A stretch of 64,000 bases of DNA from an uncultured Spirochaetota bacterium (GCA_963781885.1 CAWAHW010000002.1:1216001-1280000), one strand, 5' to 3'; positions 10,266-27,989 are shown, counted from the first letter of the stretch. Notes: generated by a model from the sequence alone, not told the origin. Numbers and translations: made by a program.

Positions 10266-10324
10266 CGCGCCCGGAGATACGGCGCGATTGACTTTCGGCG
10301 CGCCAGGGACTATAGGTGGGGAGC

Positions 10325-10591
10325 ATGAGCGGTCCTGAGGATCAGATCGAAGAGAAAACCAGCGGCGGGCGCCGGCACTCGCGCGGCCTCTTCTTCCACT
10401 GGCTCATCGGTCTGTTTGGCCTGGGAACGGGAATGCTCGCGTTCCTCCTGCTTTCGACCGGTGACGTGGGATGGACGACGCCGCTCGTGATCCTGCTGTT
10501 GCTCTTCTTCGTGGCCGGCGTCGGGGCGCTCATCGCGGCGCTCGTCATCTCCGTGACAAGGAAGCCCGGCCGAAAGAGCACGCGGCCGTGA
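10325..10591 (+). CDS. Small membrane protein, hypothetical
   Basis: Two hydrophobic segments; GGAG upstream. Confidence 0.6.
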   Translation: MSGPEDQIEEKTSGGRRHSRGLFFHWLIGLFGLGTGMLAFLLLSTGDVGWTTPLVILLLLFFVAGVGALIAALVISVTRKPGRKSTRP

Positions 10592-10863
10592 CGTCCACCG
10601 GCATCTTCGATCGGCTGGCTGCCGCCTTTTCATCGTGGATCGGTTACGGCTGGCTCACGGCCTTTCTCATCTGGGCCGCGGGCACGATAGTCATCCTCCG
10701 CGTCGTCTACCGCTATTTCCTGGAAAGAATTGGCACCCGCATCCCGACCATTGTCATCTTTGCTCTGTGGACCATCATCGTCATGGGCATTGCCGGCCAC
10801 TATCTCGGCTACGGCCAGCCGGGGGAAAATAGGGCTACGCCGATGCCGGGCGAACACGCGTGA
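10588..10863 (+). CDS. Small membrane protein, hypothetical
   Basis: GTGA overlap with the previous stop; two TM segments. Confidence 0.55.
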   Translation: MTSTGIFDRLAAAFSSWIGYGWLTAFLIWAAGTIVILRVVYRYFLERIGTRIPTIVIFALWTIIVMGIAGHYLGYGQPGENRATPMPGEHA

Positions 10864-11614
10864 CCGGGTCCTGCCGGTAGAAGGCGGACAGGAGCGCGTA
10901 GACGTCGGGGTATTCCCCCCGCAGCAGGGTCGGCCTTTCGAAAAAGTATTCCGTGCAGACCGCGAAGAACTCCGCGTCATCTTCCACGGCATAGGGATCG
11001 ATCTTCACGCGACGCTTCTTGCGGCCCGTCTTCTTCTTGAGATCCGCGAATGCACCGGCAAAAACCGCGCTCCAGCGTGCAGGGTCCATGCCGTCGTGCA
11101 GCGCCGGCCTTCCGTTCACTTCGCCATCCAGCATGTCCAGGCGGTGGGCGGCTTCGTGAATGATCACGTTGTAGCCGTCACCCCAGCCCGATGCCTCGAC
11201 GTCCTTCCACGAGAGCACGACGGGGCCCGTGTCCCAGGATTCGCCGCTGTTGTCCTCGTCCCATTCGTGCACGACGCCCGCCTGGTCGTATCCGGTGTGC
11301 TCCTCGATGAAGACGTCCGGCACGACGACAACCGTCTCCCAGTTCTCGAAGCTTTCAAGGCCGAGGTTGAGGATGGGAAGGCATGCCTGCACCGCGATCA
11401 CCTCGCACATCGACGCGGTGAGCTCCAGACCGTCGGCGCCCTCGAATGTCTTTTCGTGCAGGAAGAGCGTGGAGAGAGCGCGCAAACGGCCGAGGTCCGC
11501 CTCCGACAGCCCCGCGAGGATGGGATGCTCCTCCACGAGCCACGTCCACGTGTCTGCGGGGAGAAGGGACTCCTTCAGTATGTGCTGTCGGCGCAGGCTT
11601 CGATAAAGGCCCAT
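10835..11614 (-). CDS. Zinc-dependent peptidase, M90/MtfA family
   Basis: IAVQACLPILNLGL, GPVVLSW, NVIIHEAAHRLD, AEFFAVCTEYFFE. Confidence 0.88.
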   Translation of the reverse strand: MGLYRSLRRQHILKESLLPADTWTWLVEEHPILAGLSEADLGRLRALSTLFLHEKTFEGADGLELTASMCEVIAVQACLPILNLGLESFENWETVVVVPDVFIEEHTGYDQAGVVHEWDEDNSGESWDTGPVVLSWKDVEASGWGDGYNVIIHEAAHRLDMLDGEVNGRPALHDGMDPARWSAVFAGAFADLKKKTGRKKRRVKIDPYAVEDDAEFFAVCTEYFFERPTLLRGEYPDVYALLSAFYRQDPVTRVRPASA

Positions 11615-11758
11615 TCTTTGCTCAAGGAAGCGCGGGAGCCAATCGGCGGCATCTCCGCGCATGCACAAGGTGCGCGCATTTTCTGCCACGGTCAAGCTCT
11701 TCCGTCGCTCGGCCTTTCCGCAGGCGGTCACATCAGCCCGTCAATGCGGGCTATTGGG

Positions 11759-12878
11759 TCACGAATGTGCCGATTCGGCGTCGAGGTACCTCTGCGCGAC
11801 TTCGCGGATCGACTCCGCGGTCGCCAGGAAAGCGTCCACGATGTCCGGATCGAAGTGACTTCCCGAGCTTTCCCGGATGATTGAGACGGCCATTTCGTGA
11901 GGGAACGCCGCCTTGTACACGCGTTTGCTCACCAGCGCATCGTAGACATCCACGACCGCCATGAGCCTTCCGGGAACGGCGATGGCCACTCCCGCCAGAC
12001 CCCGCGGGTATCCCATGCCGTCCCACCTCTCGTGATGCGACCAGGCGACTTCGCGCGCGAGGTGCAGGAATGAGGTCGGCGATTCAATGAGCTTCTCCGC
12101 CGCCATGATGGAGTTTCGACCGAGCGTGGTATGCGTTTTCATGATTTCGAACTCCTCCGCCGTCAGCTTCCCGGGCTTGAGGAGTATGCGGTCGGGAATC
12201 CCTACCTTGCCGATGCCATGGAGCGGGGCCGATTTGTAGAGGAGCTCGATGGTGTCGGGCGTGAGAAAGGACGAGAACCGTGGGTGGCCTTTCAGCCTGA
12301 GCGCGAGCATCTTCACGTAATGCTGGGTCCGGCGGATGTGATTGCCCGTTTCGTTGTCCCGTGTTTCCGCGAGCGACCCCATGGCCACCATTGTCACGTC
12401 CTGGATGGTGCTGATTTCCTGTGTCCTCCTCCCGACCTCCTGCTCGAGATACTCGCTCTTGTCACGCAGAAAGTCTCGCGCGCCCTTCAGTTGCAGGTGG
12501 GTCCGCACCCGCGCGGTCACGATAGCGGGACTGATCGGTTTCACAATGTAGTCGACTGCTCCGAGCTCGAGACCTTTCTGTTCGTCGGCGGCATCCGACT
12601 TTGCTGTAAGGAAGATGACCGGTATGTCGGTTGTGGTTGGATCGTCCCTCAGGCGCTGGCACACTTCGTACCCGTCCATTCCGGGCATCATGACGTCGAG
12701 GAGAATCAGGTCGGGAGGATGTGTCATGAGACGCGACCTCCAGGGCCTTCGCGCCGCCCGTGGCAACCTTCACCCGGTAGGTGGTGTTGAGAAGCGAGCT
12801 CATGAGCGCAAGGTTTTCGGGCGCGTCATCGACGATCAAGATGGTCTGCGTCCTGGCGTTTCTGGGCGTCTCTGACAT
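11759..12878 (-). CDS. Response regulator with HD-GYP domain (RpfG-like), apparent +1 frameshift near 12725
   Basis: ILIVDD in one frame, PDLILLDVMMP in the next; ETGNHIRR, HHERWDGMGYP; HD motif reads HG. Confidence 0.85.
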
Positions 12879-12893
12879 GGTGACACCCTGCGT

Positions 12894-14417
12894 CTATACG
12901 ATCCCGTTGTCGAGTCGCTGCAAGGCGTCCCAGGCGGCGGAGAAATCGTATGCGATGAGCTTTTCTCGCAGCAATTCCACCTTGTTCTCCGCATACGACG
13001 AGGCAAGTCTTCCCGAAACGCTCTCGAGATAGTCGAGGGCGTCGCTGTCACTTTCCTTGATGAGTGTCGTGAGTCGCGCGATGATGATTGTCCGTTCCGC
13101 GGCGTCCAGCTGTGAGCCTGCCCGCTGCACGGGGGCCCGGGACGGAAGGGTTTCCAGAATGCCTGCCGTGGCCTTCTGGAGAGCCGCCGCAAGACGGCGC
13201 AGATTCTCCTCAACGGCGGTCGGTGTGTCTTTTGTCTGGATCCGCCGCTCCAGTTCGCCGGAGAGCTCCTGCACCTCGACCACGCCAAGATTGCCCGCTA
13301 TTCCCTTGACGGTGTGTGCGAGATGCTCAGCCGTCGGACGGTCCCCTTTTTCGAGGGCTTCCGCAATCCTGGCGGGGGTCTCATGGTGCCCCTCTGCAAA
13401 TCGGCGCAAAAGAACCGCATAGAGCGAGGCATTTCCCGCCACTCGCTTCAATCCTGCGACCACGTCGACTCCCACGATCGGGGCAAGGGAAAACTTCTCC
13501 CCAACGTGAGGAGTCTCTTCCGGAATCTGCCCTTTCAGTGTCGGGCCGCGGTAGTACTTGCGGATAGTCTGGACCATGGCGTCGGGGTCGATAGGCTTGC
13601 TTATGTGATCATTCATGCCCGCTTCCAGTGCTTTCTCCCGCTCTTCGCTCAGGGCATGAGCGGTCATCGCAATGACGGGAATGCTCGTTCCCCACTCGGC
13701 GGCCCTGATGCGCCGGGTGGCTTCGTACCCGTCCATTTCTGGCATCTGGACATCCATCAGGACCAGGTCAATACGTGCGGCGTGATCCATCAGCCTCGCA
13801 ATGGACTCCTTTCCGTTGTTTGCGATTTCCACCCCCGCGCCAGCTGCCTGGAGCAGCTCCACGGCGATCTCCTGGTTGATCTCGTTGTCCTCGACCAGCA
13901 GGATGCGCGCGCCGCTGAGCATCCCGGCCTGGTCGTTGCCGGGCATCGATTCACGAAGCGCGGGCCGAATATCGGGGGCAAACACCTTCAGAATGGCATC
14001 CAGAAGGCTGGAGGGGGTCAGTGGCTTCAACAGGAAGTCGGCCGCACCCGCGTTCAGCGCGTTCTGGCGTTCCCCTTCTGCTCCCTCCGACGCGCTGAGC
14101 ATGATGGCGACGGGCGGCCGCGCGGCCTTCACGCCGGCGAGGATTCGCCGCGTGGCTTCAATACCGTCTATGCCCGGCATCCTCCAGTCCATGAGCATGA
14201 GGCCGAATGGATCACTCTCTTCAGCGTTCCTGACCGCCTCTATCGCGTCGCCTCCAGAGGCGACCGTCTTCACCCGGAAATGAAGAGAAAGAAGGGTGCG
14301 CTCGAGGATTTTTCGCGCCTCCTCGTTGTCATCGGCCACGAGGACCCGCATCCCATTCAGATCCACAGGGACTGCAGGGGGTATGTCGAGACTCTGGCGG
14401 GACCGAAGCTGCCCCAC
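12894..14417 (-). pseudogene. C-terminal REC-REC-HPt part of a hybrid histidine kinase, 5'-truncated
   Basis: Two receiver domains (VLVADDN, ILLVEDNEIN) and HPt (AHTVKGIAGNLG); no HisKA/HATPase upstream. Confidence 0.7.
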
Positions 14418-14721
14418 TTCATCCAGGGCCCTTTCAAATCAACCCAGTTCAGGTCGTGCGTTCTTCAGCTGTCTCGACGCACCCAGACTACGCATCTCGT
14501 CCTGATTAATATATTGCAGAGTGATAGGTATATCAAAGAAAAAAACGATTTCTATTCCGATCAGGAAGCCTTCCAGCTGGATTCAGATCTGCATCGGCAG
14601 TTGCGAATCGACCTCACCCAAATTCTAGCTGAATAGAGCACGATGCCTCACGGAAAAAACTAGCCCAGAATATCCGGGCTTCAAGACGATTTCTGTCGCC
14701 TTGGCACGGAGGTGGGCTGAG

Positions 14722-14955
14722 ATGGAGGTATCGATGACCGACAGGCGCACCATCATCAGGCGTAGCTTTCACCGCTACCAAGAGGCTGATCGGAAGACCA
14801 AAACACGAATCTTGAACCAGGTCATGGAGCAGACGATGTACCGCAGTCGCGCCTACCTGGCTTTGATCCTGCGCCAGTGGGGCAGGACCAACTGGCATTC
14901 GGGTCCGCGCGGACCCCTGCACAAATGGGCGAAGGGGACGTCCGCATCCCCGTAG
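14722..14955 (+). pseudogene. N-terminal fragment of a DDE/rve-type transposase
   Basis: RYQEADRKTKTRILNQV...YRSRAYLALILR resembles the RY..A.KKEK..ILDE..Y.R.YA..LL start of integrase-core transposases; ends after 77 aa. Confidence 0.55.
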
Positions 14956-15068
14956 GTTCTGCTAAGGACTGTAAGCCCTCTTGCAGTGCATCATGCGGTC
15001 CGCCGGTCTCTCTGAAATAGCTCGCCGTGGACGGGCGAAAGCTGCTCGCAGGCCGTTGGATTATAATA

Positions 15069-15097
15069 TTGACAGTTGCACTGCCACTGTATATTAT
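15069..15097 (+). promoter_or_regulatory. Sigma70 promoter with overlapping inverted repeat
   Basis: TTGACA-17 bp-TATTAT; arms taatattgacagt / actgtatatta. Confidence 0.7.
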
Positions 15098-15124
15098 GCT
15101 GTCGTGAGTCAAAGTGAGCGCGTC

Positions 15125-15652
15125 ATGAACATGCAGGCGCTGAGCGACCGGTCCGGAACGCCTGTTCGCACAATACGGTTCTACATCAGTCAGCGGCTGC
15201 TGGCGGGGCCGCAAGGTCGGGGTACTTCCAGCTCCTATGCGGAGGATCACCTGCGGCGCCTTCTTCTGATCAAACAGTTGACCCGCCGTCACGTGCCTTT
15301 GACAGAGATCCGTGACCATCTGGATGGGGTCTCCCCGGAGGCACTCGCGCAGGTCCTCGAGTTGGCGCAGAAGCAAAACGCCGCGGAGGCAAAGGTGCAG
15401 AAGAACTCGCCCCGGCAATATCTGTCAGAGCTATTGCGGGACGTTCATCTCCATCGAATGGGAAGCGAGCTCGGGAAGCCGTATGTGCCACAGCGGGAGG
15501 ACCGCGACGTATGGCGGAGGGTGAAGGTCGCCTCGGGTATAGAGCTCCACTACACTCTTGAGTCTGAGGAGAGGAACGCTGAGCTCGTGGCTGAGTTGAT
15601 CGATAGTACGCGACAGGTTGCGCAGAGAGCAAGCACGAGGAGGGGAACGTGA
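15125..15652 (+). CDS. MerR-family HTH regulator
   Basis: LSDRSGTPVRTIRFYISQRLL...YAEDHLRRLLLIK; C-terminal WRRVKVASGIELH. Confidence 0.85.
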   Translation: MNMQALSDRSGTPVRTIRFYISQRLLAGPQGRGTSSSYAEDHLRRLLLIKQLTRRHVPLTEIRDHLDGVSPEALAQVLELAQKQNAAEAKVQKNSPRQYLSELLRDVHLHRMGSELGKPYVPQREDRDVWRRVKVASGIELHYTLESEERNAELVAELIDSTRQVAQRASTRRGT

Positions 15653-17187
15653 TGGAAAATGGACATCCGGCAGAGGGAACGAACGGCCAGGAGGGCATGT
15701 TTCTTGGAGTTGGCGTAGAGAGACGACTGCTCAGGACCGTGAAGAGCGTGAGCCATATCGACCTGACAGTTCGTGCGCCGGTTGCGCATGGAGAAACCGG
15801 GCGGCCGCCGCTTGCTCTTTCCCTGGTGATCGACAGATCGGGCTCAATGCAGGGGAACAAGCTCATCACTGCCAAGCGCGCCGCACTCGCCGTCTTGGAC
15901 CGGCTGAGTGGTGAGGATATCGCGGCCGTCGTGGTCTTCGACAACATCATCGATCTGGTCCTTCCCGAAGGGCCGATAAATGATGAGAGAAAGGCACAGG
16001 CACGGGCCGCCCTCTCTCTCATAGAGGCGAGGTCCCAAACCGCGCTCCACGAGGGCGGGCTGACGGGATGTCGGTCCATTGCCGCGGATGTCATACAGGG
16101 CAGGAAACCCGAAAGGCTTTCCCGGTGCTTTCTGCTCACGGACGGGCTTGCAAACGTGGGCATGACCGACCCTGAGCAGATCGCGGCCCAGACGGCGGAT
16201 GTGCGGCAAAACACTGGGATATGCACAAGCACTTTCGGGATTGGGGATGACTATGATGAAAGGCTCCTTGCCCCTATGGCGGTTGCAGGCAGTGGCCAAT
16301 TCCACCACTTGCGGGATGAAGCGGACATTGCCGCCACCTTCGCGGGCGAACTCTCTGAGATGTTTGAGGTGACCGCGCGAAGCGTGAGCATTGAGATCCA
16401 GGCGGACCCCTCGGTGCATCCTGAGCTGGTCAGCCTGTACTGGGGGGCGAACGGCGCCGGCCCTGGCGTCCTCCGCGTCGATCTGGGTGACATGATCGGC
16501 GGTGAGGAACGGCACGTGGTGGCGCGGCTCGTCTTCGGCTGGGTTCCTGTTGGCGCGCGCATTCCTATGCGTGCCCGCGCGATCTGGCGCGATGGTCAGT
16601 ATCTCAGGGACGGGCCATGGCAGGAGCTCACTTTTGTGGGAGCCGATGACGCAGCCTGCTCCAGGGAAGCGCGGGACATGGCCGTGATGCACTGGGTGGG
16701 GTGTCATCACGCTGACAAGGCCAAGGCAGAGGCCCTGGCGCTCCACCGGCAAGGAGATACGGAGGAGGCCATCCACGTCCTGGAGGGCGTGATGCGGAAG
16801 ATGGGTGAATATGCCGCCGCGGACCCTGACCTGGTACGGGCCTTGAAAGAGCTTGGCGATCTCCGCGAGAAGCTCCTTATGGACCGCGTTTCTTCATCGA
16901 TGGCCAAAGAAATGAGCTATACCTCACACCTGAACTCACGAATGCAGCGGGACATGCGCCACGTCCTGACCGCTGGAAACGGTTCCTTTCGCCTCGTTAC
17001 ATCGCAAGAGTGTGGTCTTTGGGACGCCCTCCACTATGGGACTTATTCAGCCGGTCGCAGCCACCGCCGGAGTTACACTACGCCCGGCGCCAGCCTGCTT
17101 CTCAGTAGTCTCGCTAGGTTTTCTGACGCCAGGAAACGCCTGGCCTATGCTCCGGTGGAGGCCGACCATGGAAAAATACCAGCCTAA
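15649..17187 (+). CDS. von Willebrand factor A domain protein
   Basis: Intact MIDAS (DRSGS...T...LLTDG), STFGIGDDYDE; the tail after QRDMR may be read-through. Confidence 0.88.
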   Translation: MMENGHPAEGTNGQEGMFLGVGVERRLLRTVKSVSHIDLTVRAPVAHGETGRPPLALSLVIDRSGSMQGNKLITAKRAALAVLDRLSGEDIAAVVVFDNIIDLVLPEGPINDERKAQARAALSLIEARSQTALHEGGLTGCRSIAADVIQGRKPERLSRCFLLTDGLANVGMTDPEQIAAQTADVRQNTGICTSTFGIGDDYDERLLAPMAVAGSGQFHHLRDEADIAATFAGELSEMFEVTARSVSIEIQADPSVHPELVSLYWGANGAGPGVLRVDLGDMIGGEERHVVARLVFGWVPVGARIPMRARAIWRDGQYLRDGPWQELTFVGADDAACSREARDMAVMHWVGCHHADKAKAEALALHRQGDTEEAIHVLEGVMRKMGEYAAADPDLVRALKELGDLREKLLMDRVSSSMAKEMSYTSHLNSRMQRDMRHVLTAGNGSFRLVTSQECGLWDALHYGTYSAGRSHRRSYTTPGASLLLSSLARFSDARKRLAYAPVEADHGKIPA

Positions 17188-19483
17188 ACCGATTGACACT
17201 TCACACATTACGCTCCCAAAAGGCATTTTGAAGCTCAAGGAAAAGCTCGCGGAGAACGTGCACGATGTCTGGGCTCAGCAACGGATCAAGGACGGGTGGA
17301 CGTATGGGAAAAGGCGTAGCGACAGGACCAAGCGTCACCCCTGCCTTGTGCCGTACAGGGAGCTTCCGGTTTCAGAGAAAAGGTATGACCGCAGCACCAT
17401 GGAGGAGACCATCAAATGCATACTTGCTCTCGGGTATACCCTGGATTCTGCAAAACATGATGCTGAAGAGGACGATCCTGCCTTGCGTGAGCTCGAGTTG
17501 CTGCTCAAGAGCCCCAAGCCCGATTTCCTGGAGATGTTTCGGCTGTGGCAAAACAGGAATCCACTCGCCAGGCCCGAGACTCCGCGTCTGCACGAATTGT
17601 TCGCGAATCGCCTGATCAAGATGGAGGAATCTATCGTTGCATATGACGTCATCGCGCACGGTTTATCAATCTGGCCGAGCGATAAGAGCATGCTGCATAA
17701 AAAGGGCCTGGTGCTCGCGCGAACCGGCGCCACGGAAGAGGCCCTCTCCATAGCATCCGGCCTTGAACGGGTGACGGGGAAAAAGGATCCGCTCCATGAT
17801 GAAATCCTGGGGCTTCTGGGACGCTGCTACAAGGACCTTTGGGAGTATGAGCATGATTCAACGAGAAAGCGGGAACACCTCGAGCGCGCCTTCGAATTTT
17901 ATCAACGCGCGTTTCAGAGCCTGCGGGGAACCTATTATACGGGCATAAACGCGGCGCACATGGCGCTGCTCAAGGGGGACAGGGAAGAGGCGCTCAGGTT
18001 GGCGGAGATGGTGATAAGCTGCTGCGCATCCGAGCGGCGAAAAGGCGAGGATTCCTACTGGCTGTACGCAACCATGGGCCACGCTCTTCTGATAAAGGCG
18101 TTTCAGGAGCCGCGATTCATGGATGAGGCGGAGCACTGGCTCAGGAGCGCAGCGACCGCGGGCGCGGGCAACTACGGCGATCTCAATGCAACCAAGCGAA
18201 GCATCAGGCAGATCCGTGAAAATATCACGCTGCCACGGGAATTCGAGGAACGCGTGGAGAGTCTGCTCGCCCTATTCCAGTGCCCTTGCGTGGCCGTCTT
18301 CTCCGGGCACATGATCGACCAGCCGGGAAGGCCGGAACCTCGCTTCCCCCAGGGCATTGCTGCAAGGGTCAAGCGTGAGATCAAGCAAAAGCTCATGGAT
18401 CTGAATGTTCGCATTGGATTCGCCTCCGGCGCATGCGGCGCGGACATCCTGTTCCATGAGACACTTCTCGAACTCGGTGGCGAAACGCACGTGGTGCTGC
18501 CATTCAATCGCGATGAGTTCATGAAAACGACCGTTGGGGTCGGGGAGAACGCGGATTTTTGGAAGGGAAAGCTCAGGGCGATCCTGAAGAAGGCCAAGAG
18601 CGTCATCACCGTGTCAAGGCAGCAGACTGATTTCGGGTCGGTTTATTACGATTACGCGAATATCGTGCTGAACGGGCTCTCCCGGAACCAGGCCATGCAC
18701 CTGGACACGGACCTGGTGGCGCTCACGGTCTGGAACGGGAAGGCGGGGGATGGGCCGGGCGGTACCGCAAGCATGTATGGCTATTGGAAGGATGTGATGG
18801 GCCTTCCCAATATCCAGGTCATCAATCCACGGCAATTCTTGCCGGAGGGAGAGGTTGGGAACCTTACAGGCGCGGACATATCACCGGATGATATGACTAT
18901 CGAGCCGGCGAACGCCCAATCGCCGGTTGCATCACCGGTCGCGGCTGAGAGCATCAAGGCCATGCTGTTCGCAGATGTGGTGAAATTCAGTAGCCTCAAG
19001 GCGGGCCAGATCCCTGCTTTTGTCAAGAGTTTTATGGGCGCCATCGCTGGATTGATCGAAAAGACAGAATACAAGCCGGAAACCAGAAACACGTGGGGCG
19101 ACGGTCTCTATTTCGTTTTCGACAAAGTTGAGCACGCGGGTCTGTTCGCGCTCGATTTGTGCGATCTGGTCTTGGGCACGAACTGGATGGAGAAGGGCTT
19201 GAACGATAATACGAGCATCCGAATTGCGCTGCACGCAGGCCCTGTTTTCTGCTGCGTGGATCCTATTCTCGGGGTGAAAAACTACACGGGCTATCATGTG
19301 AATACAGCCGCGCGTCTCGAGCCCATAACGCCCCCCGGCAATGTCTACGCCACCCAGCAATTTGCCGCGCTCGCGTCATTCCACGGGATTACGGGTTTTG
19401 CGTGCGACTATGTGGGTCAAATCCCCTTTCCCAAGGGCTTTGGCGCTTACCCGATCTACCATGTGAGGAGAGCACAGGGGTGA
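17168..19483 (+). CDS. RyR-repeat + TPR (DUF4071-like) + SLOG-like domain + class III nucleotide cyclase
   Basis: GGAGG RBS; YQPKPIDTS...LAENVHDVWA...GWTYG...HPCLVPY (RyR); LGLLGRCYKDLW, YYTGINAA; FSGHMIDQPGR, ACGADILF; FADV, TWGDG, IRIALHAGPV, VNTAARLE. Confidence 0.88.
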   Translation: MEKYQPKPIDTSHITLPKGILKLKEKLAENVHDVWAQQRIKDGWTYGKRRSDRTKRHPCLVPYRELPVSEKRYDRSTMEETIKCILALGYTLDSAKHDAEEDDPALRELELLLKSPKPDFLEMFRLWQNRNPLARPETPRLHELFANRLIKMEESIVAYDVIAHGLSIWPSDKSMLHKKGLVLARTGATEEALSIASGLERVTGKKDPLHDEILGLLGRCYKDLWEYEHDSTRKREHLERAFEFYQRAFQSLRGTYYTGINAAHMALLKGDREEALRLAEMVISCCASERRKGEDSYWLYATMGHALLIKAFQEPRFMDEAEHWLRSAATAGAGNYGDLNATKRSIRQIRENITLPREFEERVESLLALFQCPCVAVFSGHMIDQPGRPEPRFPQGIAARVKREIKQKLMDLNVRIGFASGACGADILFHETLLELGGETHVVLPFNRDEFMKTTVGVGENADFWKGKLRAILKKAKSVITVSRQQTDFGSVYYDYANIVLNGLSRNQAMHLDTDLVALTVWNGKAGDGPGGTASMYGYWKDVMGLPNIQVINPRQFLPEGEVGNLTGADISPDDMTIEPANAQSPVASPVAAESIKAMLFADVVKFSSLKAGQIPAFVKSFMGAIAGLIEKTEYKPETRNTWGDGLYFVFDKVEHAGLFALDLCDLVLGTNWMEKGLNDNTSIRIALHAGPVFCCVDPILGVKNYTGYHVNTAARLEPITPPGNVYATQQFAALASFHGITGFACDYVGQIPFPKGFGAYPIYHVRRAQG

Positions 19484-19622
19484 TCAGGAATTGCCGACGA
19501 TAGACAGCGAAAGTGCATTTCTGTACGCTCAGCCTGCAAAATAAACCATTTCCCAACACAGCACTGCAGCCGAGTGCCTGGAACTCAAGCCGTTTTTTTT
19601 TGCTTGGCTGCCGGAGATCTGC

Positions 19623-21037
19623 ATGAAAAGGGTGTTCATTTCATACCGATACAAGGATCATCCTCGGTTTGAACTTGTCAGAGAGATCTCGGCACGCCTC
19701 CGCTTCTTCTCGATAGAGGTGATCCTGGATCAACGCAGTTTGCTTTTTGGAGAGGACATCAAGGCTTTTATGGAGGAGATGATACAGACAGCAGACGCGA
19801 TCGTGATCCTTCTAAGTGAAGACTATAATCAGGCTCTCCGCCAGGAGGTCGGCCCGGGAGCCGGCGTCCGCTTTGAAGTAAGTCTCGCTCTGCAAGAACG
19901 AAAGCGAAGGCCTGCTTTTCGAAATTCTCCCGATCCTTCTCGACTCAAGTCTTCCTGTCCCCCCATTTGACCGTTTGAAGTGCGCTAGACCGAACGATAT
20001 CGATCAAATCGTCACAGAACTGGGGTTGGTTGAGCATCTGAGTGAGTCGCGTGTTCTGGCCGACCGCTACCGTCTGGATCAATTCGTTGAAACTCGTGGA
20101 CTGGCTCGCGTGTTCAAGTCCCATGATCTGGTTTTGGATACCCCTGTGGAAGTCTATATGGTTCCCGCGACAGGGGAGACTGGCCTTCAGGGCGAGAGGT
20201 TCCGGATTTTCGAAAGGGTCCTAAAAGGACGATCTCAGGCATTTAGTCCATTTCTCCTAAACATTCGCGATTCTTACGTAGATTCTGATGGTGCGTATTA
20301 TCTCGTCACCGAAGAGTTTGCCGGTACCGACCTGAGCGTGCCTCTCAACAGAGGGTTTACGACACACCCTTTTGGCGCACTCTGCATCGCCTACCAGGTT
20401 GCCCTTGGTCTCTACGAGCTTCACCAGAGTGGAGTTCTCCATGCTGGCCTGGCTCCGCGCGCCATCCGGCACAACAAAGAAAGAACTCTCTGCAAGATCG
20501 TTGACTTTGAATTCGCAAGACCCGCTATCGGCGTTCGTCAGCTGCCACTGGACGGATACCCTATCATTTCGCCCCCGGAGCGTTTTGCTGGCAAACCGCC
20601 CTCCATTTGTCAGGATGTCTACCAACTCGCGAATCTTGTATTTTGGCTTATTTGTGGTTTTCCGGTAGTGTCGCGCTCTGTCTATAGGCTCATGCCTTCA
20701 GCCTTAACTCTTTCCACTGTGGTTTGTGAGGATTCTGGCCTCCAAGAATCTCATTGCATCTACGCTATCCGATTTTTCCTCTCGGAAAATAGCAACGGCG
20801 GATCGGAATCCAGACTTAACCGAGGCTATCGCCAGATCGCAATCGACCGACTTCATAAGAAATGTATTAAGCCCGTTTCTTGCTTCCTGTCTTCATCCTG
20901 ATCCTCGATTGAGGCCGAGAAATATCGGTGAAGTGCTGGGCTTTCTATCGACACTGGAGATTCCGCCAGCGGGCAGACTGCTCGATCGTGGGGGCGCCGA
21001 AGTGTCGGGTGCTCTTTTTCCAGAATATGAAACGTAG
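19623..21037 (+). CDS. TIR/SEFIR-like domain fused to Ser/Thr pseudokinase; two apparent +1 frameshifts (~19918, ~20715)
   Basis: VFISY, ILDQ, ADAIVILLSEDY, GVRFE; kinase fold DRYRL, YYLVTE, LYELHQSGVLH, KIVDFE, DVYQL, CLHPDPRLRP. Confidence 0.75.
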
Positions 21038-21127
21038 GTGGAAGGCCACATTGAATTGCAGCCAGGACGCAGCAGGGCACTTGAGCTTCACCGTCCTGGA
21101 TTGAGAATGCGCGGCCACGTCCCTTTT

Positions 21128-21364
21128 TTATAAAGCGATTCTTTGCAGCAGATCGGTTGGAATCGAGCTGAAATGGCTGTCCTTGTGAACGAGTATTGCG
21201 TTATTGAGAGAAGCGCATGCGGCAATCAAGGCATCAAAAAGGGGGAGGCGCGCCTGGCTCAGAGAAGACAGTTCAAAGGCTCTCACTGCGACTGCTGTAT
21301 CAATCGCCATGACGCGCTCAGCCAGCGAGGCATAGGAAAGACTCATAGAGCGCGCTTGATCCAC
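21128..21364 (-). pseudogene. C-terminal fragment of a PIN/VapC-family nuclease
   Basis: LPLFDALIAACA...ILVHKDSHF; N-terminal catalytic Asp missing where the IS21 end begins. Confidence 0.7.
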
Positions 21365-21397
21365 TGTATGTCCGAGTCCAACTGAGCGGGAGCTGGG

Positions 21398-21650
21398 GTC
21401 AGGTCAATTCCCCACCCTCAGGGCTGGTAGGGTCATGTAGATTCCCCGGGTTTCGCGGTTTCGCTCCGTCAGGGTCATTACAATTCCCCACCCCGACGAT
21501 CCCCGGTAGGGTGTCTCCAGAGGGGGACATCAAGGATGGGCTATCGAAGGATGAAGAAGCGCGACCTGTGGGAGACTACCGCCGATGGCAGGCCGGGCGG
21601 TCGCTCTCGCATATTGCCGCTAAAGAGCGGCGCGATCGACGATCAACTCT
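21398..21650 (+). mobile_element. IS21-family left end with IstA N-terminal remnant
   Basis: Three repeats ggtca-n-attcccc; ORF from 21536 MGYRRMKKRDLWE/YRRWQAGRSLSHIA...DRRST. Confidence 0.65.
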
Positions 21651-21654
21651 GAAG

Positions 21655-21858
21655 GTGAAAAACTGCACGGGCTATCACGTGAATATGGCCGCGCGGCTTG
21701 AGAGCATCACGCCCCCGGGCAGCGTCTACGCCACCCAGCAATTCGCCGCTCTCGCGTCATTCCAGGGCAACGCAAGCTTTGCATGCGACTATGTGGGCCA
21801 GATCCCCTTTCCTGAAGGATTTGGCTCATACCCGATCTACCTCGTGAGGAGGGAGTAG
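21655..21858 (+). pseudogene. 3' fragment of a paralogous class III cyclase gene
   Basis: Codon-aligned with 19274-19474; many synonymous differences. Confidence 0.85.
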
Positions 21859-21893
21859 CGCGTTCACCACAAACGGACGTACACGTGTTTGAC

Positions 21894-22586
21894 TCACTCC
21901 TGCCGATCGACCGAAGACGGGGATATTCCCAGGCGGGAAAGCGACCGCGCGGCTTCATCTCGAACTCTCTCGTCCCAATCCTTCAAGCATTCCTGGAGAG
22001 CTCCCACCGCCCGAGAATCCTCGATCTGGCCCAATGAATGAATAACGGCAATCCGTGTATGGACGTCGTACATTCCATTCCCGTGCGTCTTCAAGCTCTT
22101 TACGAGAGGCTCGACCGCATGCGGTTCGCGCAATAGTCCCAATGCGCGCGCGGCTTCGGTGCGGCGCCTGACGCCCAAGTCCCACACATGCTGGTCGGAA
22201 ATCCCCCGGCTCTCCTCCCGAGCCCACGACCTGTTGAACTCATCGTCATCGCCCTCATAATGAATCCTTCTTCGTGATGAGGTCATGCCTTCAGGATGCA
22301 GCTCGGTGATCCACAGCTCGAGCAATCGCGCCTTCAGGTCGGCATCCCGAACGCGTGCCGCCATCGTAACCAGGGCATCCACGGCGGCATGTGCTTCCGT
22401 GTCATCCTCAGCTCCGCGAGCGACAAGCAAGGGCTCCACGGCGCTGTCATCCCCGACCTCGCCCAACGCGGCTGCCGCCTTTGTCACGCTCATACGATCC
22501 TTGGAAGAGCGAAGGACTTTGATCAAGTTTTTCACGTCCGAGCGGGCCTTCATGCGATCGACGTTTGGCGGACCGAATATGCTCAT
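21894..22586 (-). CDS. HEAT/PBS-lyase repeat protein
   Basis: AAAALGEVGDDSAVEPLL, AARALGLLREPHAVEPLV, SLGQIEDSRAVGAL. Confidence 0.85.
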   Translation of the reverse strand: MSIFGPPNVDRMKARSDVKNLIKVLRSSKDRMSVTKAAAALGEVGDDSAVEPLLVARGAEDDTEAHAAVDALVTMAARVRDADLKARLLELWITELHPEGMTSSRRRIHYEGDDDEFNRSWAREESRGISDQHVWDLGVRRRTEAARALGLLREPHAVEPLVKSLKTHGNGMYDVHTRIAVIHSLGQIEDSRAVGALQECLKDWDERVRDEAARSLSRLGISPSSVDRQE

Positions 22587-22639
22587 CCTGCGACCTCCCC
22601 ATGCTTATGAATTATTCCGATTCCTCTCATCAACTTCAC

Positions 22640-22884
22640 CTGCAGCGGACCTTCCCCGCCTTGGTGTGCAGCCGCCGTTTTCAATGTCTTTTCCACCATC
22701 TCCCGCAGCACCTCGCTGAGCTGGTCCTTCACCAACGCCTCGTCGATGCGTATAATCCTTTGCTGTGAACCTTCGTAGTTCATGACGCCCTCCTGAATCA
22801 GTCTGGTCCAGCAACTCAACTGAAGCAGAAGAAGGCGCCCTATTTCGAAGGACTCCAAATGTGCGAAAGATAGTATACGTAATC
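22640..22884 (-). mobile_element. IS256-family remnant, internally deleted
   Basis: IIRIDEALVKDQLSEVLREMVEKTL, then RLHTKAG in another frame; end-like sequence gattacgtatactatctttcgcacattt. Confidence 0.6.
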
Positions 22885-23038
22885 CTGCCGGAGGCCGTAA
22901 AGTTGTGGGACCGCGCCACGGCGAGCAAGATCCCGGAAATTCCTGGCACAAATGGGATTGGCGGTCAAACGCCAGGGCGTGGCTGGGCCGCGTTCAAGCG
23001 TTATTATGAGTCCGTGAATATGGCAGAGGAGCTATGCG

Positions 23039-26000
23039 ATGACCAAAGCCAATGACCGCTACCATTCGCTACGTGGGCTTAGTCTCCCTCACGATGCCTT
23101 TGAGAAGCTGCCGAACATCGAGCGCTACCTCGACGCGGCAGTCGAGAAAGCGTGCGGCGAAATCGTTGCGAGCGGGCCGTTGCCTTGCATCGATGCGCGC
23201 TATGCATTTGCGTTCAACAAGATGGCGCGTGACAGCTATGAGGCGGGGCGAATTGGTGAGGCGGTGGGGCACTATACCCATGGGATCAAGCTGCTCGCCC
23301 TGCTGCTGAAGTCACCCCATGTGCTTGGCGCGTCCCGGTCGACGATCCCAGAGTTTCTCTCCGGCGTCTATTCCGACCGCGCGAGTGCCTGCTCTGATGT
23401 GAATGACTTCACAAACGCGCTCGCCGACTACGCTTGCGCGCTGCGTTTCGACAATCCACAACGCTGGGTCATACTCCTAAATCGGGCAGGAACATTTGAG
23501 CGAATCGGCGAGTTCCAGAGTGCGGAAAGGGATCTGCTGGAGGCGCAACGAATCGCCCCGAAGGCTGGTACGCCGCATGCAAACACGCATGGCACGGAAG
23601 CCCTCGACCGGATCGAGGAGTCCCTTGGACGCGTTCGTCTCGCGGCAGTCGGTCGCGGGGGGGGGTCGGAGGAGCCGCCGTCGCCTCCAACGCCAGAGGC
23701 AAGTGAGAGCGGGACCTCGCTCTACGGGGTTGGCTCGCCCAAGGTCGGCCTTGACGCCGCTCGGGCCGAGATCGCAGAGGGGGAGCCGCGCGTCATCCGC
23801 GTCTTCATTTCGTCAACCTTTCAGGACATGCAGGCCGATCGCGACGAACTGGTGAAGCGGACGTTTCCTGCGCTGCGCAAGCTCTGTGAATCACGTGGCG
23901 TTACCTGGGGAGAGGTCGATCTGCGCTGGGGCGTGACCGACGAACAACGCGCGGAGGGGAAAGTGCTGCCCCTCTGCCTCGAAGAGATCCGGCGCTGCCG
24001 GCCTTACTTCATTGGGCTGCTGGGGGAGCGATACGGTTGGGTGCCCGACGAGATTCCCAGGGAGCTGACCACGCGGGAAGAATGGCTGACGGAGCACCGC
24101 GGCGTTTCGGTTACCGAGCTGGAGATCCTGCATGGCGTGCTGAATGATCCCCAAATGGCCGACCGCGCCCTGTTCTACTTCCGTGACCCTGCTTACAGCG
24201 AGGGGAGGCCGGATGGCGAGCGAGCGCCGTATCTCGAGGCTCCGAACGCGGACGAGACTGCGCGCTTTGGACGAGAAGAGGCTGCGCGTAGGGCTGAGGA
24301 GCGCAGGCAGAAGCTGAAAGCCTTGAAAGGGCGCATTCGGGATAGCGGCCTTCCTCTTCGCGAGAACTACAGAGATCCACGCGAGCTTGGCGAGCTCATC
24401 TTGTCCGATATGACCTCGATTATCGATCGGCTCTTCCCGGAAGGCTCCGCGCTGGACATCCTCGATCGGGAGGCACGTGATCACGCTTTCTTCGCGCGCA
24501 GCCGCGCAAATGTCTACATTCGGCGACCTGCGTACTTCGAGCGTCTCGATCGTCATGTGGGGAGCGACGATCCGCCCCTGGTCTTGATCGGCGAATCGGG
24601 CTCTGGGAAGTCCGCGCTTGTCGCAAATTGGTCGTTGGAATATAGAAAGAAGCACCCGCGCGATTTCCTTTTGCTTCACTTCATTGGTGCCACACCCGAC
24701 AGCGCGCATTGGGCACCTATGTTGCTTCGGATTATGGGCGAATTCCATCGCCAGCTGGGCATTGTTGGCGAAGTCGGCGAGAATCCGCAGACACTGCGCG
24801 CGTCGTTTGCCCGATGGCTGAATATCGCCGCGGAGAAAGCGCGTATTACACTGATCCTCGATGGGCTGAACCAACTCGAGGACACCGATCAGGCTCTTGA
24901 CTTGAGCTGGCTGCCAGAAACAATCCCGAATAACATTCGGCTGATCCTAACCACTCAGCCGGGCCACACCTTGGATGTGCTGCGCGCGCGCGAATGGCCC
25001 ACCGCACTGGTGGAGCCTTGCACGGAAATGGAACGCGAGAAACTGATCGAACAGTATTTGCTGCAGTATGGAAAGGCGCTCAGCCCAAAGCAGATGAAGA
25101 CGATCGTTTCCGCGACGCAGGCCGGGAACCCTCTTTACACAAGAGCGTTGTTGGAGGAACTGCGAATGTTTGGGGTCCATGAGCAACTCGACCAGTGTTT
25201 CCAAAGCTATCTGCAAGCCGCGACGATCGATCAGCTCTTCGAGAGGATCCTTGCCCGTTGGGAGCACGACTATGAGGACCACCAAGCGCCCCAGCTTGTG
25301 GGCAGGGCAATGACGCTGCTATGGGCCGCGCGAAGAGGTTTGTCGGAAGCAGAGCTGTTGGAACTGCTCGGGACAGAGAAAGCGCCACTACCGCACGCCC
25401 TCTGGTCGCCGCTGCACCGGGCGCTTGACTCGCATATAGTCGACCGGATGGGTCAACTGGCTTTCTCGCATGAATACATGCGTCAGGCAGTACACCAGCG
25501 CTATCTGGCAAATGAGGAAGCAGCACGGGACGCGCATCGCAAGCTCGCAGATTACTTTGCGGGACGAGGTCTTACTCAGCGAAAGATCGAGGAAGAGCCG
25601 TGGCAAATGGATCGTGCTGGCGATTTCAAGTCTCTCGCGCGCCTGCTGTCTGATCCCTCGTTTTTCATTGCCGCGTGGCAGTCGAACCAGTATGAACTGA
25701 AGGCTTACTGGACACATATCGAGAAGCAGTCGGACGTGAGGTTAGCCACAGCATATCACGCCGTACTGGAGTCGCCTGAGAAGGTGGATCATGAGGCAGT
25801 ATGGAACATCGCGATGTTGCTCAACGACACCGGATCTCTTCCAGAAGCACTGCAGCTTCGACGTTACCTGGTCCGCTACTACCGGACGTCAGACGATCGG
25901 AAAAGGCTGGCGGGCGCGCTGGGTAACGAGGCCGCTTCGCTCATGGCTGTCGGGGACATGGCCGGCGCCATGCCCCTGGTTCGAGAACAAGAGCAGCTTG

Positions 26001-27274
26001 CCCGCGATCTGGACGACAAATATGAGCTTGCGAGATCGCTTGGTAATCAAGCGATCATCCAGCGGCACCTCGGCAATCTTGAGGAAGCGAGCAGATTACG
26101 TAAAGAGTGCGCGCTCGTGGCGAAGGAAATGGGCAACGACCTGCTGATGGCCGAGTCGCTTGCGGATCAGGCGTTAATCCTTGCCAAGACGGGCAACCTG
26201 CCCGAGGCGCTGGAAGTAGTCGAAGTGGCGGAGCGTGTTTTTTATGGATTGGGCGAAAAGCGGTCGTTGGCCATCGCTCTGCTCAATCACGCTTCGATGT
26301 TGAAACAGCAGGGCAATCTCCGAGGTGCCCTTGCACTCCACGAGAAGGCTGAGTGCTTGCATCGCGAGATGGGGGACAGGGAATTGGTCGCGAAATCGCG
26401 CGAGCTAGAGGGCGAAATCTTCGTCGCGCTGAAAGATCTTCGCGCAGCGTTGCAGTGTTTCCAGGAGCAAGAACGCCTGGCACGCGAACTGAGCAACATG
26501 CGAATATTGGCCTCATCCGTCGGGCGCCAAGGGCAAGTGTCCGCCCTGCAAGGCGAGCTCGATCAAGCCTTGCGACAGTTCCAAGAGTCCGAGCGATTAA
26601 GCCGTGAGTCGAGTGACCTGGTTCCAGTCGCCTGGTCGCTGATTCAGCAGGCGATTGTGCTGGCAGCCGAGAACGATCTCGATGGCGCGCTGAATCGGGG
26701 CAAGGAAGCCGAGAGCTTGTGTCGCAAGCTTGGGAACAAGCCACTACTGGCAGAGGCGCTCGACCGTCAGTCTCGAGCCTATGCTGCGCGCGGTGAAGGA
26801 AAGGTATGCCAACCGCTGCTAAAGGAACTAGAGCGCCTGTACCGCGAGCTTGGCGACAAGCCGCATCTGCAATCAACACTTGGCTCCCTGGCTGCCCTTC
26901 ATTACTCGGACGGCGACTTCGCTGCCACAATAACGCTGTTGAAAGAACAGGAAGCCCTCGCGCGTGAGCTCAATGATCTGGCGAGCGTGCAGCTTGCGAT
27001 TGGACACCGTGCGGAGATCTTGTTCCGAACCAACAACGTTCCGGCCGCGCTTGACGCGCTGGAAGAGAACGTTCGGCTGTGCCGTGAATCGGGCGATAAG
27101 GCCGGGCTGGTAAGAGTGCTCGGCAACCAGGCTGAGCTCCTGCACCGCAGCGGACAGTATCAACACGCACTGAGACTGGTCGATGAGGCGGCCGCTGTCG
27201 CTCAAGAAGCGCGTGATCTTCAATCGGCCTTGCGGATTGAAGACTTGCGCCATCGGATCCAGACACGTCGGTAG
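23039..27274 (+). CDS. TPR + DUF4062 + STAND/NACHT-like NTPase + TPR sensor (NLR-like)
   Basis: RVFISSTFQDM...VDLRWG...CLEEI...FIGLLGERYGW; Walker A GESGSGKS; Walker B LILDGLNQL; GNPLY; ~40-aa TPR repeats. Confidence 0.9.
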   Translation: MTKANDRYHSLRGLSLPHDAFEKLPNIERYLDAAVEKACGEIVASGPLPCIDARYAFAFNKMARDSYEAGRIGEAVGHYTHGIKLLALLLKSPHVLGASRSTIPEFLSGVYSDRASACSDVNDFTNALADYACALRFDNPQRWVILLNRAGTFERIGEFQSAERDLLEAQRIAPKAGTPHANTHGTEALDRIEESLGRVRLAAVGRGGGSEEPPSPPTPEASESGTSLYGVGSPKVGLDAARAEIAEGEPRVIRVFISSTFQDMQADRDELVKRTFPALRKLCESRGVTWGEVDLRWGVTDEQRAEGKVLPLCLEEIRRCRPYFIGLLGERYGWVPDEIPRELTTREEWLTEHRGVSVTELEILHGVLNDPQMADRALFYFRDPAYSEGRPDGERAPYLEAPNADETARFGREEAARRAEERRQKLKALKGRIRDSGLPLRENYRDPRELGELILSDMTSIIDRLFPEGSALDILDREARDHAFFARSRANVYIRRPAYFERLDRHVGSDDPPLVLIGESGSGKSALVANWSLEYRKKHPRDFLLLHFIGATPDSAHWAPMLLRIMGEFHRQLGIVGEVGENPQTLRASFARWLNIAAEKARITLILDGLNQLEDTDQALDLSWLPETIPNNIRLILTTQPGHTLDVLRAREWPTALVEPCTEMEREKLIEQYLLQYGKALSPKQMKTIVSATQAGNPLYTRALLEELRMFGVHEQLDQCFQSYLQAATIDQLFERILARWEHDYEDHQAPQLVGRAMTLLWAARRGLSEAELLELLGTEKAPLPHALWSPLHRALDSHIVDRMGQLAFSHEYMRQAVHQRYLANEEAARDAHRKLADYFAGRGLTQRKIEEEPWQMDRAGDFKSLARLLSDPSFFIAAWQSNQYELKAYWTHIEKQSDVRLATAYHAVLESPEKVDHEAVWNIAMLLNDTGSLPEALQLRRYLVRYYRTSDDRKRLAGALGNEAASLMAVGDMAGAMPLVREQEQLARDLDDKYELARSLGNQAIIQRHLGNLEEASRLRKECALVAKEMGNDLLMAESLADQALILAKTGNLPEALEVVEVAERVFYGLGEKRSLAIALLNHASMLKQQGNLRGALALHEKAECLHREMGDRELVAKSRELEGEIFVALKDLRAALQCFQEQERLARELSNMRILASSVGRQGQVSALQGELDQALRQFQESERLSRESSDLVPVAWSLIQQAIVLAAENDLDGALNRGKEAESLCRKLGNKPLLAEALDRQSRAYAARGEGKVCQPLLKELERLYRELGDKPHLQSTLGSLAALHYSDGDFAATITLLKEQEALARELNDLASVQLAIGHRAEILFRTNNVPAALDALEENVRLCRESGDKAGLVRVLGNQAELLHRSGQYQHALRLVDEAAAVAQEARDLQSALRIEDLRHRIQTRR

Positions 27275-27989
27275 CTCTCCCCACGCGTGATCGCGCTCAG
27301 AGGCCGATCCTTGAAAGTGGGCAGAATGAGACGCTTGAGTTGGGAAGAGCGCAGCACCGCACATGACCGCGAGAAGTGTCCGGAGTGACCTATGTTACGG
27401 GCTGTGCAGGGTGCCGAGGGGCTTGTGTGGGCGAAACCATTCCAGGGCAAGCCGATGCATGGCTCCCGAGGCAGAGGTCTCCCCCGGCTGTGCGAGCGGC
27501 ATCCGTTGTGGGGGCTCTGTCAGGCGGCGGGTTTCACAAGACTACGCATGCGCTCCTGTTGCTCAGCTCTGATCCGTCCCATCGCGATCCGGAGGAGGGC
27601 TATGGTGGGCGCTTGGGGGGGAGCAAATCGCACTTTAATCCATTATTTTAGCTGATCATAGATCCCAAAAACATTTGAACATAAGGGCGCAACAATTTGC
27701 ACCGAAGCGCGAACCGGCGCTGCCTTTGAGCAGAGTTTCGGGGATGTGTCGTGCAATACGGTCGAGGTTGGGCGCGTTTGTCCTATGGTCGCCATGGATG
27801 TCGCACTGGCTGTTCAAGATATACTTGCATCCAAATAGCCGCTTGGTCTTGAAGGAAAGAAAAGAGGGGGCGGAGAGCTGTTGCGGAACGCGCGATGCGT
27901 AAATAGCCTTGTGGGTGATTGTCACCTAAAGCCGAGCCTTCAATCATTTCTATTTTCTCCTGAGAAGCAGGATGGATTCTCCGTAAGCG

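Follow-up and report, generated by a model that had tools for sequence, protein, structure and literature searches.

To our knowledge, the known effectors of Thoeris systems kill or starve the cell directly. The effector ThsA is reported to sense 3' cyclic ADP-ribose (3'cADPR), made by a TIR protein, through its SLOG domain; the TPR of ThsI, the effector of type VIII Thoeris, is presumed to be a sensor of cyclic ADP-ribose (cADPR), a role in TIR signalling that was predicted by Aravind and colleagues; and the same survey counted 29 putative effector types, with no cyclase effector in its main text (bioRxiv 10.64898/2025.12.03.692087). Two phage proteins built on the ryanodine receptor (RyR) repeat act on such signals. 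RyDEP is described as cleaving 2'cADPR and 3'cADPR via a dyad of His75 and Asp117, with Trp78 and His100 in binding (PMC13232231), and RyR Tad as binding 3'cADPR (dissociation constant 43 nM), 2'cADPR and cADPR via His129/Trp132, His154 and Asp171 (bioRxiv 10.64898/2026.06.04.730250). Here we describe a locus at 15125..21037 of a 64,000-nt stretch of DNA from an uncultured Spirochaetota bacterium (GCA_963781885.1 CAWAHW010000002.1:1216001-1280000; the whole stretch is referred to hereafter as the window) that encodes a 771-residue protein with RyR, TPR-S, SLOG and class III cyclase domains, the sensor-cyclase, followed by a TIR-pseudokinase. We put the probability at roughly 0.55 that this cyclase-TIR pair is a Thoeris-like relay lying beside a separate MerR-vWA unit.

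The locus comprises four genes at 15.1-21.0 kb, all on the + strand and hence co-oriented, as a preliminary description of this DNA had stated: a MerR-family regulator, a vWA protein, the sensor-cyclase (17168, an ATG, to 19483) and the TIR (SEFIR-like)-pseudokinase (19623..21037). Pfam matches recovered the MerR, vWA, RyR, TPR, cyclase and TIR domains named in that description, the last gene matching TIR_2 (E = 5e-12), SEFIR (4e-8) and Pkinase (2e-8). The sensor-cyclase gene is a full-length open frame in which all of the conserved residues are present. The combination had also been said to match no recognised system. PADLOC returned no system-level match at the locus and left the vWA and the 771-residue protein without any match; its single-piece matches, to bSEFIR (2e-16) and to the PD-T4-6 kinase (3.5e-16), fell on two pieces of the TIR-pseudokinase gene.

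The N-terminal RyR domain of the sensor-cyclase (17177-17446, + strand; PF02026, E = 4e-36) matched, among PDB entries, animal ryanodine receptors in their repeat-1/2 region (about 1e-20 per domain), as well as bacterial structures deposited as 'putative ryanodine receptor'. Its residues His32, Trp35, His57 and Asp74 have a spacing (+3, +25, +42) identical to that of the ligand residues H75/W78/H100/D117 of RyDEP and H129/W132/H154/D171 of RyR Tad, an equivalence drawn from spacing against published residue numbers and not from a sequence alignment to RyDEP. Among 22 homologues His32 was invariant (22/22), Trp35 and Asp74 were kept in at least 90% and His57 in 18. The next domain is a TPR-S match (17651-18076, + strand; E = 4e-19) that overlaps a match to MAP3K_TRAF_bd. 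The idea that TPR-S is a sensor domain reportedly goes back to Burroughs and Aravind in 2020.

The middle of the protein (residues ~360-570; ~18245-18877, + strand) has no Pfam match, yet is strongly conserved. An AlphaFold2 model built on 71 sequences reached a predicted local distance difference test score (pLDDT) of 87.5, and Foldseek placed YpsA first (2nx2; E = 1.7e-6; template-modelling score (TM) 0.59/0.68), followed by ShosA, DprA and LOG. Because these are the top matches, we assign the domain, on its predicted fold, to the SLOG superfamily as a YpsA-like member, in agreement with the SLOG-like domain proposed earlier. The title of a paper cited by PMC7159879 likewise names YpsA as a SLOG protein.

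The C-terminal domain (~18935-19480, + strand) matched Guanylate_cyc (PF00211) at E = 7e-8, with 32.8 bits against a cut-off of 21.9. A sequence search of the PDB with this domain gave weak matches alone (best E = 0.0076). Its AlphaFold2 model (pLDDT 92.2) resembled CyaB, the rhodopsin-guanylyl cyclases (RhGC) and Rv1900c in Foldseek (E ~1e-13, with one value of 1.5e-13; TM ~0.8), and the domain as modelled has a class III cyclase fold. The putative metal-binding aspartates, D603 and D645, were invariant in 70 of 70 sequences and the putative transition-state arginine, R716 in an N-x-x-x-R motif, was present in at least 90%; these roles were assigned by our own reading of the alignment.

Relatives of the sensor-cyclase are numerous. 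More than 150 protein clusters share its architecture at 32-44% identity over the full length, and at least 587 of 600 stretches scanned in GTDB species-representative genomes encode a relative. The best 80 of these loci, with 8-kb flanks, were taken as the neighbourhood set; neighbouring open reading frames (ORFs) were clustered, representatives were scanned with Pfam and a TIR profile was built from the resulting matches. A TIR ORF lay within 5 kb of the sensor-cyclase homologue in 39 of the 80 loci, and in 20 a TIR gene lay on the same strand at a distance of 200 nt or less. The ranking of ORFs by distance served as an internal control: TIR ORFs made up 35 of 148 first neighbours (23.6%), 9 of 133 second neighbours (6.8%) and 4 of 422 at rank 3 and beyond (0.9%). 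Counted by locus, TIR was the immediate neighbour in 34 of 78 and fell within two genes in 38 of 78. Two loci (L052 and L069) carry members of the ThsB-like partner cluster described below whose TIR end runs off the contig.

The same linkage was seen close to the window's own lineage. Sixteen of 20 same-genus genomes have a form of the sensor-cyclase that lacks the RyR domain (about 37% identity across residues 124-769), and in 7 of 7 such loci among these relatives a gene with a C-terminal TIR_2/ThsB_TIR domain stands directly downstream on the same strand. In the set of 80, 34 of 65 RyR-bearing loci and 4 of 15 RyR-less ones had a TIR gene no more than two genes away; the seven RyR-less relatives come on top of these. 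The pairing of a TIR protein with a SLOG-bearing cyclase protein, one part of the preliminary description, is thus recurrent. The conserved core consists of a TIR protein encoded next to the TPR-S/SLOG/cyclase protein, in which RyR may be present or absent.

At least five TIR partner architectures occur across the family: a TIR-TPR protein of ~490 amino acids; a ThsB-like TIR with an uncharacterised domain (~630 amino acids, range 616-816); a TIR with an uncharacterised domain (TIR-X, ~500 amino acids), often beside an nSTAND1-WD40 protein; triple-TIR-WD40 or TIR-STAND-WD40 proteins; and proteins with a C-terminal TIR (X-TIR). On a FastTree phylogeny of 84 family members, which gave long-branch warnings that include the window's own branch, TIR-linked loci spanned Acidobacteriota, Thermodesulfobacteriota, Myxococcota, Bipolaricaulota, Chloroflexota, Armatimonadota, Gemmatimonadota, Verrucomicrobiota and a few Cyanobacteriota, and the partner type switched at least 24 times. 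In six loci from Pyrinomonadaceae (L003, L004, L008, L013, L014 and L021) the sensor-cyclase homologue has nSTAND1-WD40 and TIR-X genes on one side and a 147-residue ORF, a 360-residue ORF and an S8 peptidase on the other; functional linkage in this wider neighbourhood is not separable from shared ancestry.

In the window, the TIR-pseudokinase gene reads in three frames (19623-19970, 19975-20901 and 20726-21037). Its TIR domain matched a bacterial SEFIR structure (5y8f, E = 5.6e-6). Intact homologues are 448-508 amino acids long and 52-75% identical, and those with names come from Pirellulales and Rhodopirellula metagenome bins. In this family HGG replaces the kinase motif HRD and the VAIK lysine is gone, with DFE kept; the HGG and the missing lysine make it a family of pseudokinases, as had been proposed, the motif equivalences being our own reading. 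The three frames align end to end with the intact homologues except at two frameshift sites. At the first, a Logan short-read contig has one A fewer in the A-run at 19922-19924, and at the second a contig omits one base at 20747; each difference removes the shift. These contigs come from freshwater-sediment metagenomes (one study, two runs) at a depth of 3-4 with one contig per site, and read cover of 19400-21900 was patchy (depth in 15, 6 and 2 of 30 bins in three runs).

As both sites are one base shorter in the short-read contigs, we take the gene to be probably intact, with a product of about 471 amino acids. The frameshifts noted in the preliminary description are both present in the window, but they are absent from the short-read contigs and are probably indels of the assembly consensus or a strain variant. 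It might be argued from the frameshifts that the locus is a decaying juxtaposition in which the TIR-pseudokinase is a pseudogene amid rearrangement debris, and the Ala found in its TIR domain at a family-invariant Glu, together with a duplicated piece of a gene's 3' end and the remnant of an IS21 end downstream (all described below), would fit such an account. Contigs from two runs, however, are one base shorter exactly at both frameshift sites, the frames align with intact homologues over the whole length bar those two sites, and the sensor-cyclase is full-length with all conserved residues. We consider decay extremely improbable.

What the data establish are the domains, the conserved residues and the adjacency of the genes; we infer every mechanistic step of the relay from these. 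On this view the TIR-pseudokinase would serve as the sensor and also generate the signal: its pseudokinase or C-terminal part would detect infection, and its TIR domain would turn nicotinamide adenine dinucleotide (NAD+) into an ADP-ribose-derived messenger. The 771-residue protein would be the receiver, its constant core of TPR-S and YpsA-like SLOG and its optional RyR binding the messenger. The bound messenger would switch on the C-terminal class III cyclase, an enzyme that must dimerise, and the cyclase would make a cyclic mononucleotide (cNMP) or burn nucleoside triphosphate, leading to growth arrest or a secondary response. With its RyDEP-type His/Asp dyad, the RyR domain could be, in place of a sensor, an integral off-switch by which the signal is destroyed.

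The preliminary description had proposed a two-signal relay running either from a TIR product to the cyclase or in reverse. The first direction fits best because the 771-residue protein carries SLOG, TPR-S and RyR, all of which are tied to TIR-made ADP-ribose signals; the reverse is less likely because none of the TIR partner representatives scanned has a cNMP-binding domain. In a reverse relay of the Pycsar/Pucsar kind, the large protein would sense infection and make a cNMP that sets the TIR protein to deplete NAD+. Pycsar and Pucsar are described as pairing class III-type cyclases with TIR effectors (bioRxiv 10.64898/2026.08.12.744502), the cyclase residues here look competent, and the pseudokinase could in principle bind a nucleotide. 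The TIR effectors of those systems, however, have a cNMP-binding domain, and no match to PF00027 was found in any of 13 TIR partner representatives, including the window's TIR-pseudokinase and P0123, as had been noted earlier for the window's protein. Moreover, the TIR partners bear modules typical of sensors (TPR, WD40 and STAND), and three domain types of the large protein are known or predicted receivers of TIR products. A relay in this direction therefore seems to us decidedly unlikely.

A wider proposal concerns the host RyR domain, and we hold it only tentatively. RyR, TPR-S and SLOG may together form a receiver for TIR-made cyclic ADP-ribose signals that drives the class III cyclase, giving a two-tier cascade of an NAD+-derived signal followed by a cNMP. 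The RyR repeat would then have begun as a cADPR-type sensor or off-switch in TIR systems and would be a bacterial antecedent of the debated link between cADPR and the animal ryanodine receptor.

Several observations weigh against the Thoeris-like relay or against parts of it. The TIR domain in the window has Ala in place of the GPGEG Glu found in 12 of 12 intact homologues, and a short-read contig confirms the Ala; a second invariant Glu, in the motif RFEV, is retained, and the PDB alignment of the domain ends before GPGEG. In the cyclase, the transition-state Asn is present in the window (VNTAAR) and is mostly Ser across the family, and the substrate-specifying positions are non-canonical, reading N-T-W-G-D against K-x-x-G-D with Asn four residues before the second Asp. 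Because Asn replaces the substrate-specifying Lys or Glu, the product is not predictable from sequence. No cNMP receptor was found in the locus. The RyR domain is dispensable for the TIR link, as the 7 of 7 relatives without it demonstrate. Many of the 80 loci come from Pyrinomonadaceae and are related, so that the neighbourhood counts overstate independence. About half of the family loci have no TIR neighbour, and in a cyanobacterial clade on the FastTree phylogeny 16 of 18 members lack one, often in housekeeping contexts.

The window's own pairing has no counterpart so far. A member of the TIR-pseudokinase family stood beside the cyclase family in 0 of the 80 loci, a further point against the relay as drawn for this locus. 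The TIR-pseudokinase family is rare: no match was found in 400 genomes of the window's phylum, and none in 400 genomes of the order around L047, where no positive control matched and the blank shows little. A metagenome scan yielded two loci, one of them informative (L096, a 4.7-kb contig); the gene there is intact, and neither the 1 kb upstream of it nor the 2.2 kb downstream holds a cyclase-family member, which also counts against the relay. Therefore, the TIR-pseudokinase partner appears to be particular to the window, which agrees with the frequent swapping of partners in the sensor-cyclase family.

The loci without TIR bear on whether the family serves immunity at all. Their neighbours are mostly unrelated housekeeping genes, with the exceptions of an NB-ARC-TPR gene (L048), a prokaryotic TRPM-type SLOG gene (L060) and Crp-type cNMP receptors (L026 and L066). 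The sensor-cyclase might thus be a cAMP/cGMP cyclase regulated by a metabolite, NAD+-derived or other, with the TIR proteins as metabolic NAD+ hydrolases. The RyR-less form found in most same-genus genomes suggests vertical conservation, cyanobacterial and verrucomicrobial loci lie among housekeeping genes (IspD, ResB and NAD synthase), the Crp-type receptors adjoin the cyclase, and PADLOC does not recognise the 771-residue protein. On the other side, the TIR partners have features characteristic of conflict systems (STAND-WD40, TPR and tandem TIRs) and are exchanged rapidly, and the window copy sits in a strain-specific island, next to an NLR-like gene and an insertion sequence remnant. A physiological, non-immune role is possible for part of the family; as the explanation of the pair as a whole we think it unlikely.

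The two genes upstream of the pair belong to a different unit. The MerR-family regulator (15125..15652, + strand; PF13411 (MerR_1), E = 5e-12) and the vWA protein (15649..17187, + strand; PF00092, E = 8e-8) overlap by 4 nt, or by 1 nt if the vWA begins at the ATG at 15652. The vWA family (~440 amino acids) numbers 448 proteins at E <= 0.001 among the candidates, and the matches listed are 45-79% identical. A homologue was present in 24 of 351 Chloroflexota genomes; none was found in 24 genomes from the window's family, 20 of which belong to its genus. Of 25 vWA loci, comprising those 24 from Chloroflexota and one from the window's order, 18 had a MerR homologue immediately upstream in the same orientation. 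None of the 25 had a cyclase or TIR homologue within 1.5 kb, and the gene downstream was on the opposite strand in 13 of 24 and heterogeneous otherwise. A fusion of MerR and vWA in one protein also exists (P0215). MerR-vWA is thus a self-contained and widespread two-gene cassette, separate from the cyclase-TIR pair. Among 120 vWA homologues listed, four (P0225, P0227, P0238 and P0262) carry a C-terminal ADP-ribosylglycohydrolase domain (PF03747), fusions that hint at a connection of the vWA module with ADP-ribose chemistry.

Homology to the vWA family ends at SRMQRDxR(H), near 16965 and ~200 nt before the start of the sensor-cyclase, and the window's frame runs on for 73 codons (16966-17187). 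This tail is either the result of a stop lost at a recombination junction or of another assembly indel. The 20-nt overlap between the vWA and sensor-cyclase genes depends on that tail, which is absent from homologues, so that of the overlapping ends claimed for the first three genes the MerR/vWA overlap is real and the second rests on sequence without a homologue.

The preliminary description had read all four genes as one system behind one strong promoter. In such a system the vWA could regulate the relay or provide a scaffold for it. In favour are the shared orientation and close spacing of the genes and the single good promoter-like site upstream; the four listed PF03747 fusions hint at a link to ADP-ribose chemistry, and vWA-MoxR systems are reported to couple vWA components with cNMP cyclase, TIR and inactive kinase domains (PMC7159879). 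Comparison with homologous loci tells against this account. A tblastn search of the 80 cyclase-family loci found none with homologues of the window's MerR, vWA or TIR, and two weak matches to the kinase. The surroundings of the 25 vWA loci described above, the loss of vWA homology ahead of the sensor-cyclase and a stepwise fall in G+C content (GC) across the locus all point the same way. No MoxR AAA+ ATPase or VMAP partner was seen among the ORFs scanned at 6.7-36 kb. An integrated four-gene system is very improbable, and the position of the cassette upstream of the pair may be incidental, with the cassette supplying the promoter.

The putative promoter is a sigma-70-like site at 15069..15097 (+ strand; TTGACA, a 17-nt spacer and TATTAT) matching the consensus at 11 of 12 positions. 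It was the sole + strand site before 22234 in a consensus scan, which agrees with the earlier claim of one promoter; the number of promoter-like sites in the region, six, is not above that in shuffled sequence (3.8 +/- 2.0). A dyad, ACAGT-N9-ACTGT, lies within the spacer, and the site is a probable MerR-controlled promoter of the MerR-vWA cassette, which possibly also drives everything downstream. An Rfam scan of 14400-23100 gave no match.

The island proposed earlier was evident when the DNA of 10001-30000 was compared with 15 same-genus genomes. The match ended at ~14.4 kb and resumed at ~28.4 kb, and within this ~14-kb interval, with ~14.7-28.4 kb as the part without a match, only short cyclase-paralogue hits and repeats were matched. 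GC in the island drops to 0.52-0.59, stepping through ~0.61, 0.57 and 0.525 across the locus. Downstream of the TIR-pseudokinase lies the end remnant of an IS21-family insertion sequence (21378..21638), 88-92% identical to a repeat in same-genus genomes. The repeat (~260 bp) is often found at contig ends in those genomes and is present in a single copy in this one; in one same-genus genome (G006) it adjoins an IstA-like ORF, after which comes IstB (PF01695, E = 2e-57). Next to it, 198 nt at 21654..21851 (+ strand) duplicate the 3' end of the sensor-cyclase gene with 83% nucleotide identity to 19273-19470. The duplicate (ORF 21511-21858) has ~82% protein identity to the sensor-cyclase against ~52% to the genus-type paralogue. 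A copy of the cyclase gene end thus lies on either side of the TIR-pseudokinase cassette. This is the scar of a rearrangement, and the locus is a recombination-scarred mosaic of two units within a strain-specific island.

Further along the island are a HEAT-repeat protein (21894..22586, - strand; PF13646, E = 1e-16) and, beginning 3.5 kb past the cyclase gene, a 1411-residue NLR-like protein with DUF4062, NACHT and TPR domains (23039..27274, + strand), identified by domain scan and without a PADLOC match. DUF4062, its N-terminal module, is described as a TIR-like NADase (bioRxiv 10.64898/2026.05.01.722283). The DUF4062-NACHT-TPR gene is a second conflict-type gene of the island. In one TIR-less family locus (L076) a DUF4062-TPR gene lies directly 3' of the cyclase homologue, and DUF4062 proteins may be alternative partners of the cyclase. 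The low-GC right edge of the island holds short repeats common to same-genus genomes (27276-27382 and 28426-28655; 78-92% identity). At the left edge, on the - strand at 11759-14417, are response-regulator-HD-GYP and double-receiver-Hpt genes with paralogues elsewhere in the genome (C2, near 73-80 kb).

If the relay is real, an effector whose output is a second messenger would add a relay or amplification step to Thoeris. With a host RyR domain fused to a TIR-linked receiver, the RyR fold would have a place on the defence side, and the question of cADPR and the ryanodine receptor would become testable in simple bacterial proteins, for which the family's at least 587 loci in species-representative genomes offer plentiful candidates. 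Two cautions also follow: the order of genes in a single island pointed to a four-gene system, which comparison with other loci did not uphold, and apparent frameshifts met in genome scans can be assembly errors.

The locus had been called undescribed, which holds only in part. The literature search found no description of an RyR/TPR-S/SLOG/cyclase effector, with supplements and the 2020 TPR-sensor paper outside its scope, and no match joining TPR-S with a TIR domain; the Pucsar preprint, in its text, does not describe a clade of this kind (bioRxiv 10.64898/2026.08.12.744502), and an earlier computational mention of the sensor-cyclase architecture is possible. The general logic, in contrast, is that of Thoeris, and the TPR-S sensor idea is older.

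Among described systems, type I Thoeris (ThsB, a TIR protein, with ThsA, SIR2-SLOG) resembles the pair in that a TIR gene adjoins a gene encoding a SLOG domain. The SLOG here is YpsA-like, the output is a cyclase and not SIR2, TPR-S and RyR are added, and the PADLOC models for ThsA do not match the 771-residue protein. Type VIII Thoeris, described as a TIR protein with the CMP-hydrolase-TPR protein ThsI and canonical cADPR as signal, likewise has a TPR-bearing effector, the correspondence of the ThsI TPR with Pfam TPR-S (PF20308) being our supposition and not drawn from the ThsI sequence; its output is a nucleotide hydrolase where ours is a cyclase, and the phyla given for it differ. As in Thoeris generally, a TIR protein is present and a receiver-type effector is encoded next to it, an adjacency that is conserved for the effector family and not for the TIR-pseudokinase family. 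Pycsar and Pucsar share with the pair a class III-type cyclase encoded beside a TIR protein. As they are described, their cyclase is the sensor and their TIR effector has a cNMP-binding domain, whereas here receiver-type domains are carried by the cyclase and the TIR protein lacks such a domain. The vWA-MoxR ternary systems (Kaur et al. 2020, PMC7159879) are reported to associate vWA with cNMP cyclase, TIR, SLOG and inactive kinase; the present locus has no MoxR ATPase or VMAP, and its vWA comes from a MerR-linked two-gene family. Finally, RyDEP and RyR Tad belong to the same Pfam family (PF02026) as the RyR domain of the sensor-cyclase, with equal spacing of the ligand residues (H, W at +3, H at +25 and D at +42) and a single repeat, which dimerises in the phage proteins. 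Those are described as small viral anti-defence sponges or glycosidases, whereas the RyR domain described here is host-encoded and fused to sensor and output domains beside a TIR gene.

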